From a virus (Duplodnaviria > Caudoviricetes): a DNA stretch of 64,000 bases. Made by a program: the position numbers and the translations under genes. Under the pieces are notes generated by a model. It searched no databases. It was not told where the DNA came from and saw nothing but the letters and a program-made list of their open reading frames with translations. Shown here piece after piece: positions 4,827-39,694 of this stretch. Location: positions 96,001 to 160,000 of the IMG/VR virus record IMGVR_UViG_3300028624_000004; one strand, given 5' to 3'. Position 1 is the stretch's first letter, and each line of letters starts with the position of its first letter.

Positions 4827-7802
4827 ATGGCATTTCACCCCAATGTAAAATTTTTAGATAATGTTACTTCTGATATCCAAAATCAGATAAACAATATATC
4901 TGGTGGAGCCGGTGCGACGGGAGCAACTGGCGTTGGAACAACTGGAGCTACTGGAGCCACTGGAGTTTCTGGCAGCGAGGGGGCAACTGGTGCAACTGGT
5001 CCCGCTGGCAGCGGTGCGACGGGGGCTACTGGAATTGCTGGAAGTGACGGCGCAACTGGAGCCACGGGTGTAACAGGAGCAACTGGTCCTGCTGGCAGTG
5101 GAGAAACCGGAGCGACTGGTGCAACAGGAGTTGCTGGAAGTGATGGAGCTACTGGAGCCACTGGTCCAGCGGGTAGCGGAGCAACTGGAGCAACTGGAGT
5201 TTCTGGTAGCGAGGGGGCAACTGGAGCAACTGGTCCTGCTGGCAGCGGAGCTACTGGAGCAACTGGAGTTGCCGGAAGTGATGGAGCTACCGGAGCAACT
5301 GGAGTTGCCGGAAGTGACGGTGCTACTGGGGCGACTGGCAGTGGAGCTACTGGAGCCACTGGAGTTTCTGGAAGTGATGGTGCTACCGGAGCTACTGGTG
5401 TTGCTGGGGCAACTGGTCCTGCTGGATCTGGATTAACCGACGCCCCTGTTAACGGAAATGTATATGGCAGAAAGGACGGGGCGTGGGTCGAAGTAACTTC
5501 GGTTGCAATTAGTGGATCGCTAGAACCATCTGATACTGAATATCTCATTTTAGATTCATGCATTGAAAGATCTGTTTCTGCTTATCTCAATGTTGATGAT
5601 AGTAAACAAATGCTGTATGGGTGTGTCTATAGTGGTAAAAATCTTAACGGCACCGTTTCTGACCCCCATACTACTTTTTTGAGTTTTAGTAATGAATTTA
5701 CAAATTTTCAAGCGGGGTCTTCAAATGTAGCGCAAGGAACGACCGCATCTGCTCTATACAACTATGGGGGAAGTTATGGTCCAGAAAAGGCAGTCGATGG
5801 TATAGATAACGCTGCTGGAGACAATAGATGGTCGGGGAATTCTACCACTACCCCCCAATGGTTTAAGATAGATTTTGGTGAAGGCAATGAAAAAGTCGTC
5901 ATTAAGATGATATTATATAGATCAACATATGACGGAACGAGAGAGTTTACATTCCAGGGGAGCAACGATGATTCCTTGTGGAGTGATTTGTATGTATCGT
6001 CAAATATAGGCGCTCCTACAGGAAATCCACAGCAAATAGAATTCACATGGTCAAATTCAGTAGCTTATCGCTACTATAGGTTATACATTACAAATGTAGT
6101 GACAAATTCACCAACATATTGTGAAATTAAACTTTATGACAATATTATAGTAGAAGACGCATTACTAACGACAACAACAATGTCAGTGTCGGGAGAGCCA
6201 AATGAAGCGGTGGTTTCTGTAATAGCCAACTTAGGAAATAATGTAGTAAATGATGATTTTGTCTTTAGTATTAGTAATGATGGTGGGCAAAATTACGATG
6301 TTGTGAATATAGAAAATTCAGGTCAAATACTTCCACTTCCCGCAAACTATGTTTTGTATACCGGAATATGTGAATTGACTTCAAGAAATTCTAGTGATAT
6401 GAGAGTAAAGATTCAGGTAAACGGATCTGAGCCTGTATTTATTAAGTCCTTTGCCGTCCAATACGTAAAAAGCAGAGATGAAGAATGGTATGTTGGTCCT
6501 ACTGGCGCAACAGGTGCCTCTGGACCTGTCGGGGCAACTGGTGCTGCTGGTTCTGGTGGCGTCACATGGAGTCAACCTGTTGGCTCGCCGGTGACACTGG
6601 CAGATGATGAAGAAGTATCCATTACACATCCGTCAGTAACAAATGAGAAACTACAAGTTGTAGTTTGGATGGACGTTGCTCAGACCGGACAGACATGGAA
6701 TGATCTTGATTTTGATTTGGCTGATGAGAGTGCATTTGTTCAAGAATTAAGTGGAGAAGGAACATTATTTTCGTCTGGGTCTATAACGCTTGGTGGTGTT
6801 TTTTCTGGTGATCCCGAATTAGCCGTTCCGCAAATGACTAATTATACTGTTCCTAGCGGTGAGGCATCAGCATCAACAGACCCCTATCCACAATGGTATC
6901 CTGCCTGGAAAGTTTTTAATAGAGCTAATGCGGTAGAGACAGACGCATGGACAACGCTTGAAAACGTTCAATATGGTACACCCGCAAGCTGGCAGTGGGT
7001 AAAATATGACTTTGGTTCGGGTAATGCTGTTTACATGAGTAATTATTCATTTAGAGCAAGAAATAATTCGCCTAATTATGCTCCCAAAATATGGCTCATG
7101 CAGGGATCAAATGATAATAGCACATGGATTGATCTAGAACCAGAAAGAACTAAAGAGTCATGGTCTTCACAAGAATTATATGAGAGTACTCTTACTTCCC
7201 CAGGAACTTACCGTTATATTAGATTGCTTGTTAAGGAATCAACAACTTCATCAGGATTGTCTATCAGTGATTGGCGACCACAGACTAGAGAAATTGCTTA
7301 TCCAACAGATACATGGTATTGGGTAAGAACTAATACTAATACATTTAATTTATCCCAAGCAAACGAAATAGTAAGCATAACACCAACGGTATCATCACCA
7401 ACAAATACAGATTTAAGGTGGTTGGTTTCGTTTGATGGGAATCAGACTTGGAAGAAGTGGGCTGGAAGTAGTTGGAATGATTTCAACGGAGGGCTATCTG
7501 ATATTAGTGGAGGTAATAGTACGGCAGAGGTTCAGACGGGATTGAGTAACTATGAAATACAGGAAGGAGATACATCATTGGGCTTTGCGTGGGGATTATT
7601 CACCACGAACAATCAAGCATCTCCAGTAATAGATGCGGTTGTTGTTACTTATAACGAAGCATCGCGTTATGATCCCGCAATAATCGGTGGATATTCAAGT
7701 AGCATAGCCGAATTTGGTGTAAGAAGAATATCACCAACGGAAACTAAAATAAAGAATCTCACAGGAACAACTCAAAAGATACATGCGAGCGTGATAACAT
7801 GA
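4827..7802 (+). CDS. Collagen-like fibre with two discoidin (F5/8 type C-like) carbohydrate-binding domains
   Basis: GAT/GPA triplets; two W..IDFG/YDFG...QGSND..W...YRY.RL units. Confidence 0.8.
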
Positions 7803-24268: not shown

Positions 24269-25414
24269 ATGAAATTCTATACACTTTACTCCAGAACCTC
24301 AAACGGCTCCATACAGGAGTGGACCATTCATGTAGAAGGTAATAGCTTCTTCACGGTCGAAGGTATCAAGGGTGGTAAGATGACTACCTCCAAGCCCACC
24401 GTCTGTGAAGGAAAAAACATTGGTAGAGCCAATGAAACCTCGCCAGAAACCCAGGCGCTCCAAGAAGCCAAGGCAAAGTACAAGAAGAAGGTCGATTCGG
24501 GCTACTACGAGAAGCTGGAAGATATTGACATCGAAAAGTTTACGGAGCCGATGCTCGCTCATAAGTACGGAGAGCATGAAGTTGAATTCCCATTAGCGTC
24601 ACAGCCTAAACTTGACGGATGTTTATCAGGAGATACTGTTGTCAATCTTAAAAATAATGGGAAGAAGACACTTAAAGAGATATACGACAGTAAAATAGAA
24701 GATGAAGTTTTATCATATAACGAAAAGAAAAGAAGGAATGAATATAGAAAGATAATGTGGGATTATGTAAAGCCAAATATGGCTAGACAGGATATGAGCG
24801 TCACTGGTTGGAATGTAATGGCTGTCAAGTCGGCGCATGGTGCAGGATTGAATGTTGGAAATTCGATGACTAACTGTAAGAAAGCAATTGAAAGAGTATG
24901 GAAAGCTGCTAACCCAGAATGGGAAAAGAAAACTGATCCATATACCGACAAGACAATATTTCCATATACTTGGAATGCTATTAATAACTCGACTGCAAAG
25001 GAACATCTGAGCTTCATCGGAACGACATGCGCTGTGTTCTTGGGGCATGGATCGGGAGACATTATGTTGGAGACGATGCTTAATGATGCTGAAGCAAGGT
25101 GGGTTGATAGTGGAGCGTATAAGAAGAATAACTATGCGTGCTACTACCTTTCGCTCTCAATGTTTCAGGCTGGGGGAGAGCGTTGGAAGAAATGCTTAAA
25201 TACCATAATTCCCTACACCGTGGAAACCCAAGATGCTTCACAGGGCTGCGCTCGCGGCTCGTGGAACTGGGAAGGGCAGTCGTGGCATGGATCAAGCATA
25301 GGAAGAGTGTTGACAACTTGCTATAATATCCTAAACCTTGAAGTTGCTTATCGCTATGTTCAGGTCAACCCCAATGCCGAAATACAGAAAAAACTGAAAT
25401 CAACACTAAAGTAA
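24269..25414 (+). CDS. Chimeric ORF: ATP-dependent DNA ligase N-terminus (to KLDG) + 46-aa intein N-fragment + C-terminal part of a prenyltransferase/squalene-oxidase-repeat protein
   Basis: GKNIGRANET, PMLAH, SQPKLDG; CLSGDTVV intein block A at 24620; DMSVTGW..MA.KSA and GRV.TT..NILNLEV.YRY from 24758. Confidence 0.75.
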   Translation: MKFYTLYSRTSNGSIQEWTIHVEGNSFFTVEGIKGGKMTTSKPTVCEGKNIGRANETSPETQALQEAKAKYKKKVDSGYYEKLEDIDIEKFTEPMLAHKYGEHEVEFPLASQPKLDGCLSGDTVVNLKNNGKKTLKEIYDSKIEDEVLSYNEKKRRNEYRKIMWDYVKPNMARQDMSVTGWNVMAVKSAHGAGLNVGNSMTNCKKAIERVWKAANPEWEKKTDPYTDKTIFPYTWNAINNSTAKEHLSFIGTTCAVFLGHGSGDIMLETMLNDAEARWVDSGAYKKNNYACYYLSLSMFQAGGERWKKCLNTIIPYTVETQDASQGCARGSWNWEGQSWHGSSIGRVLTTCYNILNLEVAYRYVQVNPNAEIQKKLKSTLK

Positions 25415-26246: not shown

Positions 26247-27554
26247 TTAAGGCATCCACGGCATATCTGTTTTAGCCTCGTATTCCTTTTCTTCTTCTAT
26301 TTTTACTTTATTTAAGAAGCCAGAGTTACTAACACTATCAAACTCTTTTGCTTTTTCTTTTCTTTCTTGATATGCTTTGTATATGTTAGAAGAGGAACCA
26401 TTCATATACTTTCTTTTCCTATCTGTCTCATCGTCACTTACTTCAAATTCTATTATAAATTTTGTAAATAATCCCTCTTGGCTTTGGACGTCTATATATG
26501 CGCCCATTGATATTGCATAATCCATGCACATAGCAAGCCCAAGTCCGTGTGTGTCAACATGGTCGTCTTTGGTTGTGAAGTTTGGCGTAAATAATTGTTC
26601 CATGACCTTAGAAGAAATTCCCTTGCCGTTGTCTTCTACATAAAGAGATTTTTTAGAAGAATCGCCATATATTTTTATCTTTAATTCATCTCTCATATGG
26701 GAATTGTGGTCAATGGCATTATTGACTAAATTCATTAATATCTGATGAAGAAACATGGGGGAGTGACGACATAAGAAATCAAGGGAAGTATAATCAACTT
26801 CTATTTGTGACGGTCTTATATTTTTTCTTATTGAGGAATTCAATAAAGCTACAGAAACCATGGCTTTAATGGTGGATCCAACATTAGACCTATTCATATC
26901 ATATTTCTGAAGGTACTTTATATTCTTACTAAGATTATCTACAATATATATACACTGTTCGGCAGATGCTTCTATTTCTTGAATTTTATCTTGTATAAAC
27001 TTAAAGTCTTTGCCGTTAAGCTGGGTTTTCAGTGTTAGAAATTGCAACATCATATTGGAGACATTGCGAATTATTCCTAACCACGGAGCTACCTCATGAT
27101 TAACTCCAGATATGACATTCTTAAGGTTTCGAGAGTTGCTATGGGCTATGTTCAAGCGAAAGGAAATTTCTTCTTGCTTATCTTTTAAATGCTTCTTTTC
27201 CTTCTCTTCTTTGATTAAATCATCAAGTTCTTTTTGATGATAGAAAAAATCTTTTTTGGTTATATTAATGGCTTTAAATTTTTTATAGTTGATATAAAAA
27301 TATAAGAAGGATACGGTTAACGATATTACGCCATTAAGTATAGAAATTGTATCAAATAAGTTTTTAGACGCATCAATGACAGCCGATTGCTGTTCTTGAT
27401 ATACCATACTTCTAACTTGGCTCTCGTAATTTTTCTGTACGATATGACAGATTGAATACAGAGTTGTATATGACAACAAACAAAACAAAAAAGAAATTAA
27501 GATTGAATATCTTAATTTTCTTATTAACTTAAAAATTTCTTTAAAGGTTCCCAT
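26247..27554 (-). CDS. Membrane sensor histidine kinase
   Basis: Two TM helices; H-box NHEV, N-box NLVNNAIDH, G1 EDNGKGI, F-box FTPNFTTK, G2 HGLGL. Confidence 0.93.
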   Translation of the reverse strand: MGTFKEIFKLIRKLRYSILISFLFCLLSYTTLYSICHIVQKNYESQVRSMVYQEQQSAVIDASKNLFDTISILNGVISLTVSFLYFYINYKKFKAINITKKDFFYHQKELDDLIKEEKEKKHLKDKQEEISFRLNIAHSNSRNLKNVISGVNHEVAPWLGIIRNVSNMMLQFLTLKTQLNGKDFKFIQDKIQEIEASAEQCIYIVDNLSKNIKYLQKYDMNRSNVGSTIKAMVSVALLNSSIRKNIRPSQIEVDYTSLDFLCRHSPMFLHQILMNLVNNAIDHNSHMRDELKIKIYGDSSKKSLYVEDNGKGISSKVMEQLFTPNFTTKDDHVDTHGLGLAMCMDYAISMGAYIDVQSQEGLFTKFIIEFEVSDDETDRKRKYMNGSSSNIYKAYQERKEKAKEFDSVSNSGFLNKVKIEEEKEYEAKTDMPWMP

Positions 27555-27877
27555 AGTAAACTTTGTTTGCTGATGTAATAGTATTTTTTCTCTTCAAGAG
27601 TATTTAATACCTCGTGTTCAACGCTTCCCGTTATAAACATTATTTTACCAATATTGGACTTATTCTTATCAGCAAATTCAATTCCATTTCTACCATTTTG
27701 CAATTGAACATCTAGTATAGTATAATCGAACTGGTTGTGTGTCTTCAAAAGCTCTTCAGCTTCCTTATAGGTTTTTGCGTAGTGGATATCAATATTCCCA
27801 CTGTCTATGAACATCTTAATGTATTCTATAACTTCCTTAGCAAAAAAGCTATGGTCTTCTAAAAATAAAATTTTCAT
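27524..27877 (-). CDS. Single-domain response regulator (receiver)
   Basis: KILFLEDH, ILDVQL phospho-Asp, NGIEF, FITG, YISK. Confidence 0.92.
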   Translation of the reverse strand: MKILFLEDHSFFAKEVIEYIKMFIDSGNIDIHYAKTYKEAEELLKTHNQFDYTILDVQLQNGRNGIEFADKNKSNIGKIMFITGSVEHEVLNTLEEKKYYYISKQSLLWEPLKKFLS

Positions 27878-28305
27878 TACGGCGTCCCCATGATAATAGT
27901 TGCTATTGTTTTTATTATTTCCACAATATGTGGCGCTATTGCAACAGCTATAGCAGATATTATACCCACGACAAGGGTCTGGAAATTCCAGTACTTCCCT
28001 GCCATTTCCTTAAGCTTATTTTTCTTTGGCGGCTCAACTGTATTAATGTTCTGGACAATAACTGGAGCAACAGCAGTAGTGTTGCCATGTTCTCCATTAT
28101 CGTCAATAACATGAACTATTATCCCCTTAAGAATATCAGTTAGCTCCTTATATTGGTCACTCTGACGCTCTTCAGTGGTAAATTCATTTAAGATGTTGTG
28201 TATCTTAAACTTAAGATGGACAAGTTCGACAGAAGCCTTTTGCCACTTTGAAATCTCCGTGGGGAGGGCTGGTATGTTGGCTCGTGATGGATACTTCTTT
28301 CCCAT
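27877..28305 (-). CDS. Late-gated protein with C-terminal transmembrane segment (holin-like candidate)
   Basis: GGGGGA SD before ATG 28305; C-terminal LVVGIISAIAVAIAP helix; TAATG coupling to receiver gene. Confidence 0.55.
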   Translation of the reverse strand: MGKKYPSRANIPALPTEISKWQKASVELVHLKFKIHNILNEFTTEERQSDQYKELTDILKGIIVHVIDDNGEHGNTTAVAPVIVQNINTVEPPKKNKLKEMAGKYWNFQTLVVGIISAIAVAIAPHIVEIIKTIATIIMGTP

Positions 28306-28353
28306 TATTCCCCCATAATGATATACTATATTTATACTATTATGGGGGAATAA
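28305..28353 (-). promoter_or_regulatory. Perfect 15-bp inverted repeat sequestering SD/start, with late promoter TATAAATA in the loop
   Basis: TTATTCCCCCATAAT (28305-28319) / ATTATGGGGGAATAA (28339-28353); TATTTATA at 28329-28336. Confidence 0.85.
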
Positions 28354-28370
28354 ATGTTTCAATTGTTACA

Positions 28371-28745
28371 TTATTCTTTGCCACCATGTTGGTTGCGTCT
28401 TCTTTCGATTATATTATCCCTTACTCTTTCTCTCAATGGCTCATTATTCTCACGACGGTCCTCTAATCTTTCGGGAAGGTTTCTTGCTTCTGGGAACAAT
28501 ACGCCATTTTTAGCTATTATCATTCTCATAACGTGAACCTGTAGCTTTGGGTGTCCTTTAAGGACTTCTTTCAACTCTTGTATTTTGACTTCCATTGCTT
28601 TACGGTGTTCTTCCCTAAGCTTCTGGATTTCTAGTACCTTTCCCTTTACTTCCTGTGGTAATGTTACTTCTGGTTCGTTTGCGACCTCACATGAGTATGT
28701 TGAGGCTACTAATAAGAACGCTAGTAATGTTATGATATATTTCAT
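28371..28745 (-). CDS. Exported helical protein or lipoprotein (CpxP/Spy/ZraP-like composition)
   Basis: Signal peptide ending ASTYSC; charged amphipathic helices; AGGAG RBS. Confidence 0.55.
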   Translation of the reverse strand: MKYIITLLAFLLVASTYSCEVANEPEVTLPQEVKGKVLEIQKLREEHRKAMEVKIQELKEVLKGHPKLQVHVMRMIIAKNGVLFPEARNLPERLEDRRENNEPLRERVRDNIIERRRNQHGGKE

Positions 28746-28963
28746 ATATTATCTCCTTACCCATATTTACGCACAATTCTTCAGTTTATTAATGTAGTAT
28801 CTTTCCTCACTTGATAAAAGATTATAAACTATAGTGTTTTTATTTCCTACATAACACATAAATTAAATACATTTTTAGGGGTATTTTTAGGTTACTGGTA
28901 TGGTGGATTTTAGGACTTGACTTCGGCTCTGAAGTCATAGAATATACTAGTAAGGAACTCTTT

Positions 28964-29954: not shown

Positions 29955-30887
29955 ATGCCAAAGATAATAACAACCGAAGATTTCATACGAAGAGCAATCG
30001 AAAAGCATGGCGACAAGTATGACTACAAAAATACAGAGTATAAAGGATCACGCAGTAATATTACCATAACATGTAAGAAACACAATGTTTCATTTTTGCA
30101 ATCTGCCCACCATCACTTATCGGGAAAAGGTGGATGTAAAATATGTGCCTCCAACACTAATAGATCAAATGCAGAAACCTTTATAAAGAGGGCGATGGAG
30201 ATACATAATCAAAAGTATGATTACAGCAATGTAGTGTATGAAAATAACGAAAAGCGAGTTTGCATTATATGCGACAAGCACGGTGAATTTTGGCAGTCTC
30301 CTGGGAATCATATTAGTGGTAGGGGATGTCCTGAATGTGCAAAAATTACTATTGGAAGACAAAAGATATCAAACACCAAGGATTTCATTCATAAAGCAAT
30401 GGAAAAACATGGAAACCTTTACAACTATTCAGTGGTAGAATATAAGAATTCACGTGAAGTAGTTGATATTATATGTCCAGAACATGGTACATTTCGCCAA
30501 ACACCAAATTTACACCTGTGTGGATCGGGATGTCCTAAATGCATAAAACAAAGTAGCGGCGAAACTTTCATAAGAAAATTTCTTGAGAGTAATAATATAA
30601 AGTTCATAGAGCAGGTAAAGTTTCCGACATGTAGGCATATAAAGTTGTTATCTTTTGATTTTCTTATTGAAGGTAAAAATGTCCTCATTGAATATGACGG
30701 CGAACAACACTTTAAACCTGTGAAATATTTTGGAGGCAATGTTAAATTTGAATACCGTAAGAAACTAGATTCTATAAAAAGTGAATGGGCGAAGAATAAC
30801 AGATATAACCTCGTTCGCATACCTTATGACATGTCACATAATGATATTGTTGAAAAGTTATATAATACGTTAGTTTTTAGTGCTTGA
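29955..30887 (+). CDS. Homing-type endonuclease with three DUF723-like Zn-finger repeats and Vsr/EDxHD-like nuclease domain
   Basis: H...YDYS.V.Y....V.IIC..HG.F.Q.P..HL.G.GCP.C repeats; FDF...IEYDGEQHF; TATAAATA at 29942-29949. Confidence 0.85.
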   Translation: MPKIITTEDFIRRAIEKHGDKYDYKNTEYKGSRSNITITCKKHNVSFLQSAHHHLSGKGGCKICASNTNRSNAETFIKRAMEIHNQKYDYSNVVYENNEKRVCIICDKHGEFWQSPGNHISGRGCPECAKITIGRQKISNTKDFIHKAMEKHGNLYNYSVVEYKNSREVVDIICPEHGTFRQTPNLHLCGSGCPKCIKQSSGETFIRKFLESNNIKFIEQVKFPTCRHIKLLSFDFLIEGKNVLIEYDGEQHFKPVKYFGGNVKFEYRKKLDSIKSEWAKNNRYNLVRIPYDMSHNDIVEKLYNTLVFSA

Positions 30888-38383: not shown

Positions 38384-38530
38384 TATCAAGTAGCCAAAAT
38401 TATGTGAACTACCCACCCGCTAAAGCGAGTGGGCTTCAGGTTTCATAGACACTTCTATTGAAGTCGCCTCCACCTGTTTTTGTTTAGAGTCCGATTTAAT
38501 TCCTAAACCAGACTTTTGATTTAAACCTTG
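38384..38530 (-). ncRNA. Predicted TnpB omega/reRNA scaffold plus flanking guide (ATAATTTTGGCTACTTGATA)
   Basis: Established TnpB architecture; 3' hairpin and TCAC end seen; 5' boundary approximate. Confidence 0.55.
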
Positions 38531-39694
38531 TTGTAATATATTAAGACTTGCATTTAAGTCTCTATCTATTACTTTTCCACATTGACAAGTCCATTCACGG
38601 TCTTTTATATTTAATCCTTCATTAATCCAACCACAATGACTACAAGTTTTAGAACTTGGGAAGAAGCGGTCTATTACGACCAATTCTCTTCCATACCATT
38701 CTGCCTTATAGTTTAGCTGTCGAACGAATTCACCCCAACCACAATTGCCGATTGATTTAGCAAGATTGTGATTTGACATCATACCTTTAACATTCAAATC
38801 TTCAATACATATCACTTGGTTTTCGTGAATTAACTTATGTGAAAGTTTATGTAAGAAGTCTTGACGGTTATTATGTATTTTTTCGTGAACTAATGCTACT
38901 TGTTTTCTGTATTTTATTCTACTATTACTCTCCTTTTTCTTTTTACTTAATTGTCTTTGTGTGAACTTGAGTTTCTTTTCTAACTTATGATAATGTTTGG
39001 GATTATCAAACTTATCCCCATTACTACAAACTGCGAAATCTTTAATACCCAAATCTACTCCTATTGACTCATCATTCTTTGGAAGTTTTTGTATTTCTCC
39101 AACTTCACAAGTAATTGAAACAAAATACTTCCCCAATGGAGTTTTAGAAATCGTAATGAAGTTAATATCTCCTATTTCACGATGAGCATTTAACTCTATA
39201 CCTTCATTAAACTTTGGAAAGTAAATCTTATTATCTTCAATTGAAATATGCTGTGGAACTCTAAAAGATTGTTTATCCCATTTACTTTTAAACTTTGGAA
39301 ACTTACTTTGTTTACGGAAGAAACGATTATATGCTCCATCTAAATCTCTTAAAGTATGTTGAAGTGTCTGTGAGTTTATTTCTTTTAACCAAGTAGTTTC
39401 TTCTACTTTCTTTAATTCAACCAATTCAGTTGCACAATCATAGTAATTTAGTGTCTTTTCATTCTTTAAGTATTCGTCTTTTCTTCTGTTTAGGAAGTGA
39501 TTCCAAACAAATCTCTTACAACCAAAATGCTTGGCAAGTAGCACTTCTTGGTCTTTCGTAGGTAGAAGTTGGAATTTAAACGATTTGAGCATATTACTAT
39601 TATACCACCTTCTAAAGATATTTATACGAGATTTTTAGTTTTTGTAAAAGTTTCTTTCAAGTAACCACCACTCATTATAAATGGTGGGAATATG
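38404..39694 (-). mobile_element. Non-autonomous IS200/IS605-family (tnpB-only) element
   Basis: Right end ...GAAGCCCACTCGCTTTAGCGGGTGGGTAGTTCAC; left-end hairpin CCACCA/TGGTGG 39665-39687; no tnpA; left boundary approximate. Confidence 0.75.
38420..39592 (-). CDS. tnpB: TnpB RNA-guided nuclease
   Basis: HTH FG..RFVWN, RuvC GVDLGIK / IEDL / DRDLNASLNI, Zn finger SSKTCSHCG. Confidence 0.95.
   Translation of the reverse strand: MLKSFKFQLLPTKDQEVLLAKHFGCKRFVWNHFLNRRKDEYLKNEKTLNYYDCATELVELKKVEETTWLKEINSQTLQHTLRDLDGAYNRFFRKQSKFPKFKSKWDKQSFRVPQHISIEDNKIYFPKFNEGIELNAHREIGDINFITISKTPLGKYFVSITCEVGEIQKLPKNDESIGVDLGIKDFAVCSNGDKFDNPKHYHKLEKKLKFTQRQLSKKKKESNSRIKYRKQVALVHEKIHNNRQDFLHKLSHKLIHENQVICIEDLNVKGMMSNHNLAKSIGNCGWGEFVRQLNYKAEWYGRELVVIDRFFPSSKTCSHCGWINEGLNIKDREWTCQCGKVIDRDLNASLNILQQGLNQKSGLGIKSDSKQKQVEATSIEVSMKPEAHSL

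Follow-up and report, generated by a model that had tools for sequence, protein, structure and literature searches.

A cassette of four genes was analysed in a 64,000-nucleotide stretch of DNA from an uncultured phage of activated sludge. This stretch, referred to here as the window, comprises bases 96001-160000 of a 177.5-kb IMG/VR virus contig with an estimated completeness of ~76%. All four genes lie on the minus strand. They are, in the direction of transcription, an accessory gene for an exported protein of 124 amino acids (aa) (28371..28745), followed by three core genes encoding a tail-anchored transmembrane (TM) protein of 142 aa (27877..28305), a single-domain CheY-like receiver of 117 aa (27524..27877), and a histidine kinase of 435 aa (26247..27554). 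The open reading frame (ORF) calls and the sequence placed these genes and their overlaps as a first-pass annotation of the window had described them.

The TM gene ends and the receiver gene begins on one shared base (TAATG at 27877), and the first 31 nt of the kinase gene lie within the receiver gene (27524-27554). Through the TAATG junction, the receiver is predicted to be translationally coupled to the TM gene. A longer, TTG-started ORF for the TM protein (27877-28362) was rejected as a mis-call, as the homologues set the start at the ATG at 28305. The cassette runs on the opposite strand to both of its neighbours and has a GC content of 0.33, compared with ~0.39. A scan of the cassette for sigma-70-like promoters was not above chance (15 found vs 12.8 expected).

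Hairpin and Late Promoter Upstream of the TM Gene

The gap before the TM gene measures 65 nt and holds an inverted repeat predicted to form an RNA hairpin (28305..28353, minus strand), which starts 18 nt past the exported gene's stop codon. The perfect 15-bp inverted repeat reported in the first-pass annotation was confirmed as the outer part of the stem (28305-28319/28339-28353). The full arms extend to 21 nt (28305-28325/28333-28353), are 90% complementary and enclose a loop of 7 nt. In the minus-strand RNA, the 3' arm holds the Shine-Dalgarno (SD) sequence of the TM gene (GGGGGA, 28309..28314) together with the A of its ATG (28305). The late-promoter motif TATAAATA (28329..28336, minus strand) lies 23 nt upstream of this ATG and straddles the stem top and the loop. 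The claim that the SD and the start are buried was thus borne out, and TATAAATA, which the first-pass annotation put in the loop, occupies part of the stem as well.

The fold has a calculated energy of -25.4 kcal/mol; 200 shuffles averaged -12.6 (z -4.8), and none was as stable. In the minimum free energy structure, 15 of the 17 nt from -14 to +3 of the TM gene are paired. No U-tract follows the hairpin in the sequence. The TATAAATA copy in the hairpin is the sole such site on the minus strand within the cassette, and its spacing to the ATG is usual for the phage. RNA modelled to start ~6 nt past TATAAATA, a position taken from T4, folded at -4.2 kcal/mol in the window and at about -2 to -4 kcal/mol across the loci in which the hairpin was found.

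In T4, translation of the genes e (lysozyme), soc, 49 and I-TevI is gated by a hairpin that encloses a late promoter (PMC3014915, citing McPheeters et al. 1986). The arrangement in the window resembles that of the T4 genes in that the SD and the AUG are in the stem, the late RNA would lack the 5' arm, long upstream transcripts would remain untranslated, and there is no terminator tail. It differs in the gated gene, which here heads a coupled signalling operon and does not encode lysozyme, a capsid decoration protein or a nuclease. It also differs in that the phage is only distantly related to T4, and in that sister lineages swap the hairpin for a terminator or drop both, depending on the upstream gene. 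Judged by its sequence features, a translational gate of the T4 gene-e type, with a late promoter inside an SD-masking hairpin, is strongly supported.

Source Phage and Late-Transcription Machinery

A search of the genome with PHROG profiles matched a gp43-type DNA polymerase, a DnaB-like helicase, a portal, a tail sheath and a gp15-like sheath stabiliser. The best GenBank relatives of the polymerase were cyanomyovirus gp43 proteins, to which it is ~30% identical. This low identity, together with the T4-type PHROG matches, identifies the phage as a deep-branching T4-like myovirus.

Candidates for two components of T4-type late transcription were identified, namely a gp55-like late sigma factor (genome 16792-17253; phrog_234, 1.2e-15, and phrog_12791, 1.9e-18) and a gp45-like clamp (genome 4246-5001; phrog_223, 8.9e-10). 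T4 gp55 and gp45 as single queries gave no match in the genome; the PHROG profiles matched both. The contig contains 36 TATAAATA sites, and 31 of these precede an ORF start on the same strand by 4-39 nt. A good SD usually follows the sites at gene starts, and the portal and sheath genes are among the genes served. Within the window, 11 sites were observed vs 4.65 expected. In a census of NNTAAATA, the TA- and GA-started versions accounted for nearly all of the sites positioned upstream of gene starts. The genome-wide position of the sites, along with the gp55-like sigma factor and the clamp, argues that TATAAATA probably works as a T4-type late promoter in this phage.

Two mobile-element genes in the window also have TATAAATA upstream of their starts, at a distance of 5-26 nt. 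One is a TnpB/IS605-type transposase-like gene (38420-39592, minus strand; phrog_506, 1.8e-138), and the other is an HNH homing-endonuclease gene (29955-30887, plus strand; phrog_559). Both appear to be wired to the late promoter class as well.

Comparison of the Promoter Region Across Loci

The promoter region of the TM gene was compared in 11 distinct loci, including the window. TATAAATA was present 15-36 nt upstream of the TM-gene ATG in all relatives. The elements around it followed the nature of the upstream gene. Where a co-oriented exported gene lies upstream (5/5: window, L002, L004, L018 and L024), an SD-masking hairpin was found, with a free energy of -22.6 to -26.9 kcal/mol, 13-17 of the 17 nt around the SD/AUG paired, and the promoter at the top of the hairpin. 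Where another co-oriented gene lies upstream (3/3: L013, L014 and L025), the masking hairpin was absent and an intrinsic terminator, consisting of a GC-stem and a U-tract, stood directly before the promoter. Where the neighbour is divergent (3/3: L003, L016 and L017), neither a hairpin nor a terminator was found, and the region folded at -4.4 to -10.0 kcal/mol.

The sequences of the five hairpins differ while the pairing is kept, with 4-5 pairs showing changes on both sides (RNAalifold). In L024, the SD is GGAGGGA and the 5' arm is altered to match.

The three independent layouts would all prevent expression from upstream transcripts, which argues that early expression of the three core genes has been selected against. 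Comparison of the sequences thus provides good evidence that late-only expression of this trio is under selection, and the insulation implies that early expression would be harmful. The late gating proposed in the first-pass annotation was supported by the sigma and clamp genes, the placement of TATAAATA, the covariation, and the hairpin/terminator/none rule across the 11 loci. This pattern amounts to a clean natural experiment, and it extends the gene-e gating principle well outside the T-even phages. As all three layouts are late-restricting, they also argue for a real dosage- and time-sensitive function at the membrane late in infection.

Conservation and Distribution of the Three-Gene Unit

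The order TM protein-receiver-kinase was kept in every context examined, with no exception. The contexts were the window, L002 (31 kb), L003 (332 kb), L004/5/23, L012/13 (48 kb), L014/15 (20 kb), L016, L017, L018, L025 (102 kb), and the contigs of P0153 (58 kb), P0127 and P0022. The phages range from 177 kb to 332 kb, and the identity of their trio proteins to those of the window falls as low as 26-30%. The trio is often located near DHFR/ThyX/ThyA genes. Its retention and this recurrent neighbourhood suggest an old resident of the clade and not a recent pickup.

The first-pass annotation had treated all four genes as a unit and had suggested synteny in related phages as a check. The outcome was divided. 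The order of the trio was always kept, and the hairpin was kept where the exported gene lies upstream; the exported gene itself was not co-conserved, being present in only 5 loci and missing in L003, L016, L017 and the P0127 contig with the trio intact. The conserved unit thus appears to consist of three genes, those of the TM protein, the receiver and the kinase, and is probably fixed in a clade of uncultured deep-branching T4-like myoviruses.

The kinase has ~30 relatives at E <= 5.5e-39, all of them metagenomic, and the next matches are ordinary cellular kinases at 7.9e-15. For the TM protein, 9 close relatives were found, and a profile search expanded these to 46 clusters among 1.8 billion representative proteins, all of 89-205 aa. 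No homologue of the TM protein was detected in 50,697 GenBank phage records or in 185,579 prokaryote genomes. Among the GenBank phages, searches by DNA and by protein found no relative of the cassette and no record carrying the trio; the kinase gave generic matches only (<=34% identity). Other searches for relatives of the cassette returned only the 332-kb contig from IMG/VR, 3 loci from metagenome contigs, and none from the prokaryote genomes. The PADLOC defence models gave chance-level receiver rows only.

Some genes around the trio in the relatives are recorded here. In the 332-kb relative L003, an extracytoplasmic function (ECF)-type sigma factor (6002-6544, minus strand; Sigma70_r2 + r4, E ~1e-11) is encoded two genes upstream of the trio on the opposite strand, and a PARP-like protein and a UvdE homologue are encoded nearby. 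No equivalent was found beside the trio in the window. In L012 (4719-5195) and L014 (4370-5035), the gene directly upstream of the trio encodes a very acidic protein. The two acidic proteins have a similar N-terminus (W-R-x-x-[LV]-R-x-x-x-E-S), and that of L014 is rich in LEGGDE-like repeats.

Kinase and Receiver

The kinase matched the Pfam family HATPase_c (PF02518) over residues 266-371, with 68.2 bits against a cut-off of 26.4, and kinase CA domains were matched in the PDB. The window kinase is comprised of two TM segments (residues 17-36 and 66-88) with a ~29-aa loop, a coiled coil, a diverged DHp domain, the CA domain and a charged C-terminal tail. H153, within N-H-E-x-x-P-W-x-G, is invariant among 17 family kinases. 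Also invariant in the 17 members are the residues of the N, G1, F and G2 boxes (N275/L276/N279, D308-N309-G310-x-G312, F322 and G337-L-G-L340). The DHp domain had no Pfam HisKA match, and NCBIfam kinase models align from ~residue 145.

The receiver scored 34.6 bits with Response_reg (PF00072), whose cut-off is 30.2, and 33.7 bits when the genome was searched; its family profile matched receiver domains in the PDB. Residues E7, D8, D56, T83 and K104 are invariant in 9 homologues. The Pfam analysis showed a bare CheY-like domain, in agreement with the earlier statement that it has no DNA-binding domain. The two proteins are the sole HATPase_c protein and the sole receiver in the 177.5-kb contig. 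The invariant active-site residues support a kinase/receiver pair that is catalytically intact, and with it the earlier claim of an intact two-component pair in a lytic T4-like phage.

The arrangement of two TM segments and a ~30-aa loop is present in the closest kinases only (window, L004, L016 and L018), and the L016 kinase keeps the loop without an exported gene. Other members have one TM segment or a loop-less TM hairpin. Most family kinases have nothing before the H-box (residues 31-80), including complete genes on long contigs (L003 and L014). As most members carry neither a TM segment nor a sensor domain, sensing by a periplasmic loop cannot be the general mode, and the envelope sensing that had been attributed to the kinase loop was not upheld. 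The family kinase is in essence sensor-less. A natural deletion variant is found in L002 (8001-9122), in which the kinase has lost both TM segments and the loop, yet the exported gene and the hairpin are retained.

Tail-Anchored Membrane Protein

The TM protein has a single hydrophobic segment (residues 105-139), which reaches to within 3 residues of the C-terminus. AlphaFold2 (AF2) modelling with 13 sequences gave a helical hairpin (residues 20-40 and 50-75; predicted local distance difference test (pLDDT) >90 for residues 20-70), a disordered linker and a C-terminal TM helix. The N-domain (~100 aa) is probably cytoplasmic, because positive charges precede the TM segment. The invariant residues are K20, W21, A24, S25, L39, F42, Y52 and L55; the conserved motifs read KWQxAS ... 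EERQSxxYKxL, and the architecture is the same family-wide. In fold searches, Foldseek found nothing in the PDB, VIA wide returned generic helical hairpins only (best Z 6.0), and the Atlas features reached <=0.76. By sequence, the TM protein is best regarded as a new phage-only family.

A role as an HPt/Spo0B-type phosphotransferase was considered and rejected, as H36 and H65 are lost in the distant members L003, L013, L014, P0153 and P0146. A Rosetta-stone fusion was also sought; the longest member of the TM family, P0173, has only a low-complexity acidic N-extension.

The designation of the TM protein as holin-like was not supported. It matched nothing in Pfam at E <= 1 or in PHROGs at E <= 0.01, although holins are too diverse to be excluded in this way. 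Its topology is, family-wide, the reverse of that of a typical holin, in which the TM segments are followed by a charged cytoplasmic C-tail. No endolysin gene was found beside the trio in any locus, a weak argument given that T4 itself separates t and e. Phage_lysozyme, Amidase_2 and SLT had no match in the ~76%-complete contig.

Escherichia coli ElaB, YqjD and YgaM are proteins of ~100-150 aa with an N-terminal cytoplasmic helical region, a linker and a C-terminal TM anchor. The architecture of the TM protein is like theirs. Unlike them, it has no match to Pfam DUF883, carries other motifs, is confined to phages and is linked to a kinase and a receiver.

Exported Protein

The exported protein is predicted, from its hydrophobic N-terminus, to carry a cleavable signal peptide of the signal peptidase I type, which ends in Y-S/A and is followed by (A/C)-E-V. 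Past the signal peptide the protein is helical and rich in charged residues; its AF2 model has a mean pLDDT of 67. Homologues were found only in L002, L004/L005/L023, L018 and L024. A lipoprotein was considered and rejected, as Cys19 is unique to the window and is not conserved.

There was no match to the exported protein in Pfam, PHROG, NCBIfam or the PDB, or by Foldseek against the PDB. A word-based homologue search found only the protein itself, and the Atlas gave <=0.81. LTXXQ was not matched in Pfam at E <= 10 by any of 4 homologues, and the profile gave only chance-level matches to the PDB (E >= 0.12). The description of this protein as CpxP/ZraP-type thus did not hold, there being no LTXXQ, other Pfam, PDB sequence or fold match.

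The CGTAAATA that precedes the exported gene does not belong to the typical late promoters of this genome. The divergent intergenic region upstream of the gene (window 28746-28963) contains a GAAAGATACTACA block that is conserved in L002 and L018 and recurs nowhere else in the genome. Contigs from four metatranscriptomic libraries of one biofilm study covered the exported gene in every run. Only small contigs fell in the TM and kinase genes, parts of the trio and of the hairpin were left uncovered, and no contig bridged the hairpin; contigs of this kind cannot show absence, strand, RNA ends or levels. They are at most a hint that the exported gene is a separate, well-expressed unit. The exported gene is a lineage-specific add-on outside the core, probably expressed separately.

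The RNA-library contigs matched the exported gene (window 28392-28740) at >=99% identity, with a T>C change at 28515 common to three runs. A near-identical strain of the phage therefore exists outside the activated-sludge samples that hold the whole stretch.

Proposed Mechanism and Alternative Explanations

We propose that the trio would be transcribed from TATAAATA, 23 nt upstream of its first gene, under the gp55-like sigma factor, and that translation of the receiver and the kinase would be coupled to that of the TM gene. Read-through RNA from the exported gene would carry the hairpin, in which the SD and the AUG are buried. The late RNA would start inside the hairpin, lack the 5' arm, and hence be translatable. 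The kinase is predicted to autophosphorylate at H153 and to hand the phosphate on to the receiver at D56. Were the kinase constitutive and the TM protein the target, the system would act as a phospho-timer. As a whole, a three-gene, late-only operon with an RNA gate, coupled translation and a TM partner is considered probable.

Most of the kinases lack an input domain, and the receiver lacks an output domain; the TM protein is therefore the likeliest third partner at the inner membrane. That it serves as the target of the receiver is a tentative reading, to which we give a little less than even odds. That it serves as the membrane activator of the kinase is possible but doubtful. We lean slightly to the former, because the TM protein is the first in the coupled operon and is likely to be made in at least the amount of the receiver, which is a weak inference; an activator with a host-targeted receiver is nearly as likely. 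That the trio controls an event at the membrane late in infection, lysis timing for instance, is for the present unlikely. We hold it equally unlikely that the trio is the clade's own phosphorelay, a late-phase decision device setting the breach or sealing of the inner membrane (lysis timing or inhibition). If this were true, it would be the first case of a two-component system that serves a virus's decision about its own life cycle.

Several points weigh against the proposed operon and its membrane partner. The link between the TM protein and the receiver or kinase comes from gene order, coupling and co-conservation. The fold of the TM protein is a generic helical hairpin, with no homologue of known function. 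The start of the late RNA was placed by analogy with T4, and read-through from the exported gene into the TM gene is likewise presumed. The hairpin could, in addition, serve as a 3' end for the upstream mRNA.

The last of these points can be widened to the view that the inverted repeat ends or stabilises the transcript of the exported gene, or acts in the DNA as a protein-binding palindrome or a cruciform, and overlaps the SD only by chance. The short distance from the exported stop codon to the hairpin would fit this, and the RNA contigs that cover the exported gene and do not cross the hairpin are a weak hint in the same direction. The U-tract of a terminator is missing, however; in each of the five hairpin loci the SD and start fall in the 3' arm, and in L024 the 5' arm follows a different SD. 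The stem sequence varies with its pairing kept, unlike a sequence-specific operator, and the true terminators of the relatives lie upstream of the promoter and not around it. We consider this view quite improbable. It is more improbable still, to the point of being nearly dismissed, that the kinase and receiver are a recently captured host pair (a moron) with no dedicated phage role. The strand and the lower GC content of the cassette would suit such a capture. Against it stand the tight grouping of the phage kinases apart from the cellular ones, the retention of the trio at low identity across phages of very different size, often near DHFR/ThyX/ThyA genes, the lack of a cellular homologue of the TM protein, and the invariant catalytic residues.

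Action on the host deserves more weight, although it remains rather unlikely. The TM protein would here recruit or activate the kinase at the membrane, and the phosphorylated receiver, or the kinase as a phosphatase or phosphate sink, would disturb host pathways; possible targets are the flagellar switch, a host kinase (as for DivK) or a protease adaptor step (as for CpdR). Single-domain receivers commonly act on motors, kinases or proteases. The absence of an input domain from most family kinases and the intact chemistry of a bare receiver agree with such a role, as does the fact that, of the three proteins, only the TM protein is membrane-bound in every case. Against it, there is no host target to name, late timing leaves little room for reprogramming, and the position of the TM gene at the head of the operon fits a target somewhat better than a kinase cofactor. 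The first-pass annotation favoured a holin or holin regulator bound by the phosphorylated receiver, with a CpxP-like protein tuning the kinase loop, so that the four genes would sense the envelope or superinfection and time lysis. Late-only, strictly insulated expression, as for T4 lysozyme (PMC3014915), a small membrane protein as the first gene, a receiver with no DNA-binding domain, and the failure to recognise any other lysis gene in the contig are all in its favour. Yet the exported gene is missing from most trio-bearing loci, and L016 has a loop kinase with no exported gene to act on it. The loop and TM segments are missing in most of the kinase family, the exported protein gave no LTXXQ/CpxP signal, and the TM protein has no holin family in Pfam or PHROGs, a reversed topology and no adjoining endolysin. 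This model is accordingly improbable, and the late-only trio with a TM partner is retained as the preferred reading.

Relation to Known Systems

The kinase and receiver of the trio were compared with CheA/CheY, DivJ-PleC/DivK, KinA/Spo0F and CckA-ChpT/CpdR. Like these, the trio has a DHp-CA kinase with H, N, G1, F and G2 boxes; as in CheA/CheY-type systems, the receiver stands alone, with a full acidic pocket, Thr and Lys, and its output would be by protein contact. Unlike classical two-component systems, the trio is encoded by a lytic phage and predicted to be late-only, its DHp domain has no HisKA match, and most of the kinases are sensor-less. It also includes an obligatory third gene, which encodes a new tail-anchored family with no conserved His.

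In the LytSR and CidAB-LrgAB systems of Firmicutes, a kinase-regulator pair controls holin-like proteins; LytR is a DNA-binding LytTR protein, and the Cid and Lrg proteins are multi-pass. In the trio, too, the gene of a small membrane protein is linked to those of a kinase and a regulator; that protein is single-pass and tail-anchored, the receiver lacks any DNA-binding domain, and the comparison revealed no relation by sequence. Small modulators of kinases include Sda, which is a helical hairpin, KipI and FixT, as well as the membrane connectors MgrB, SafA and MzrA. Like them, the TM protein is small, helical, and near a kinase or acting on it. To our knowledge, none of these modulators is tail-anchored with a cytoplasmic hairpin, and none showed a sequence or specific fold match to the TM protein, whose best structural matches were the generic hairpins noted above.

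A literature search for phage- or virus-encoded histidine kinases, response regulators and two-component systems found no description of a conserved lytic-phage module. A survey of jumbo phages discusses only a different, kinase-independent receiver variant (PMC7824862). The RNA gate is known as a T4 device, and the kinase and receiver belong to known superfamilies. New are the conserved, phage-only late trio, its undescribed tail-anchored partner, and the comparative rule for late-only selection. Two-component systems are the main sensing device of bacteria, and here one is kept across a whole phage clade. The system is also small and self-contained, with a sensor-less kinase, a bare receiver and a partner of 140 aa, which makes biochemical testing easy.

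Ligase-Like ORF in the Window

A plus-strand ORF of 381 aa is present at 24269-25414 of the window. It matches an ATP-dependent DNA ligase (phrog_114) over residues 10-118 only. The match reaches the KLDG adenylation motif and is followed by an intein-like CLSGDTVV and then by an unrelated C-terminal part. A chimera, a split ligase and a broken ligase are all possible readings of this ORF.

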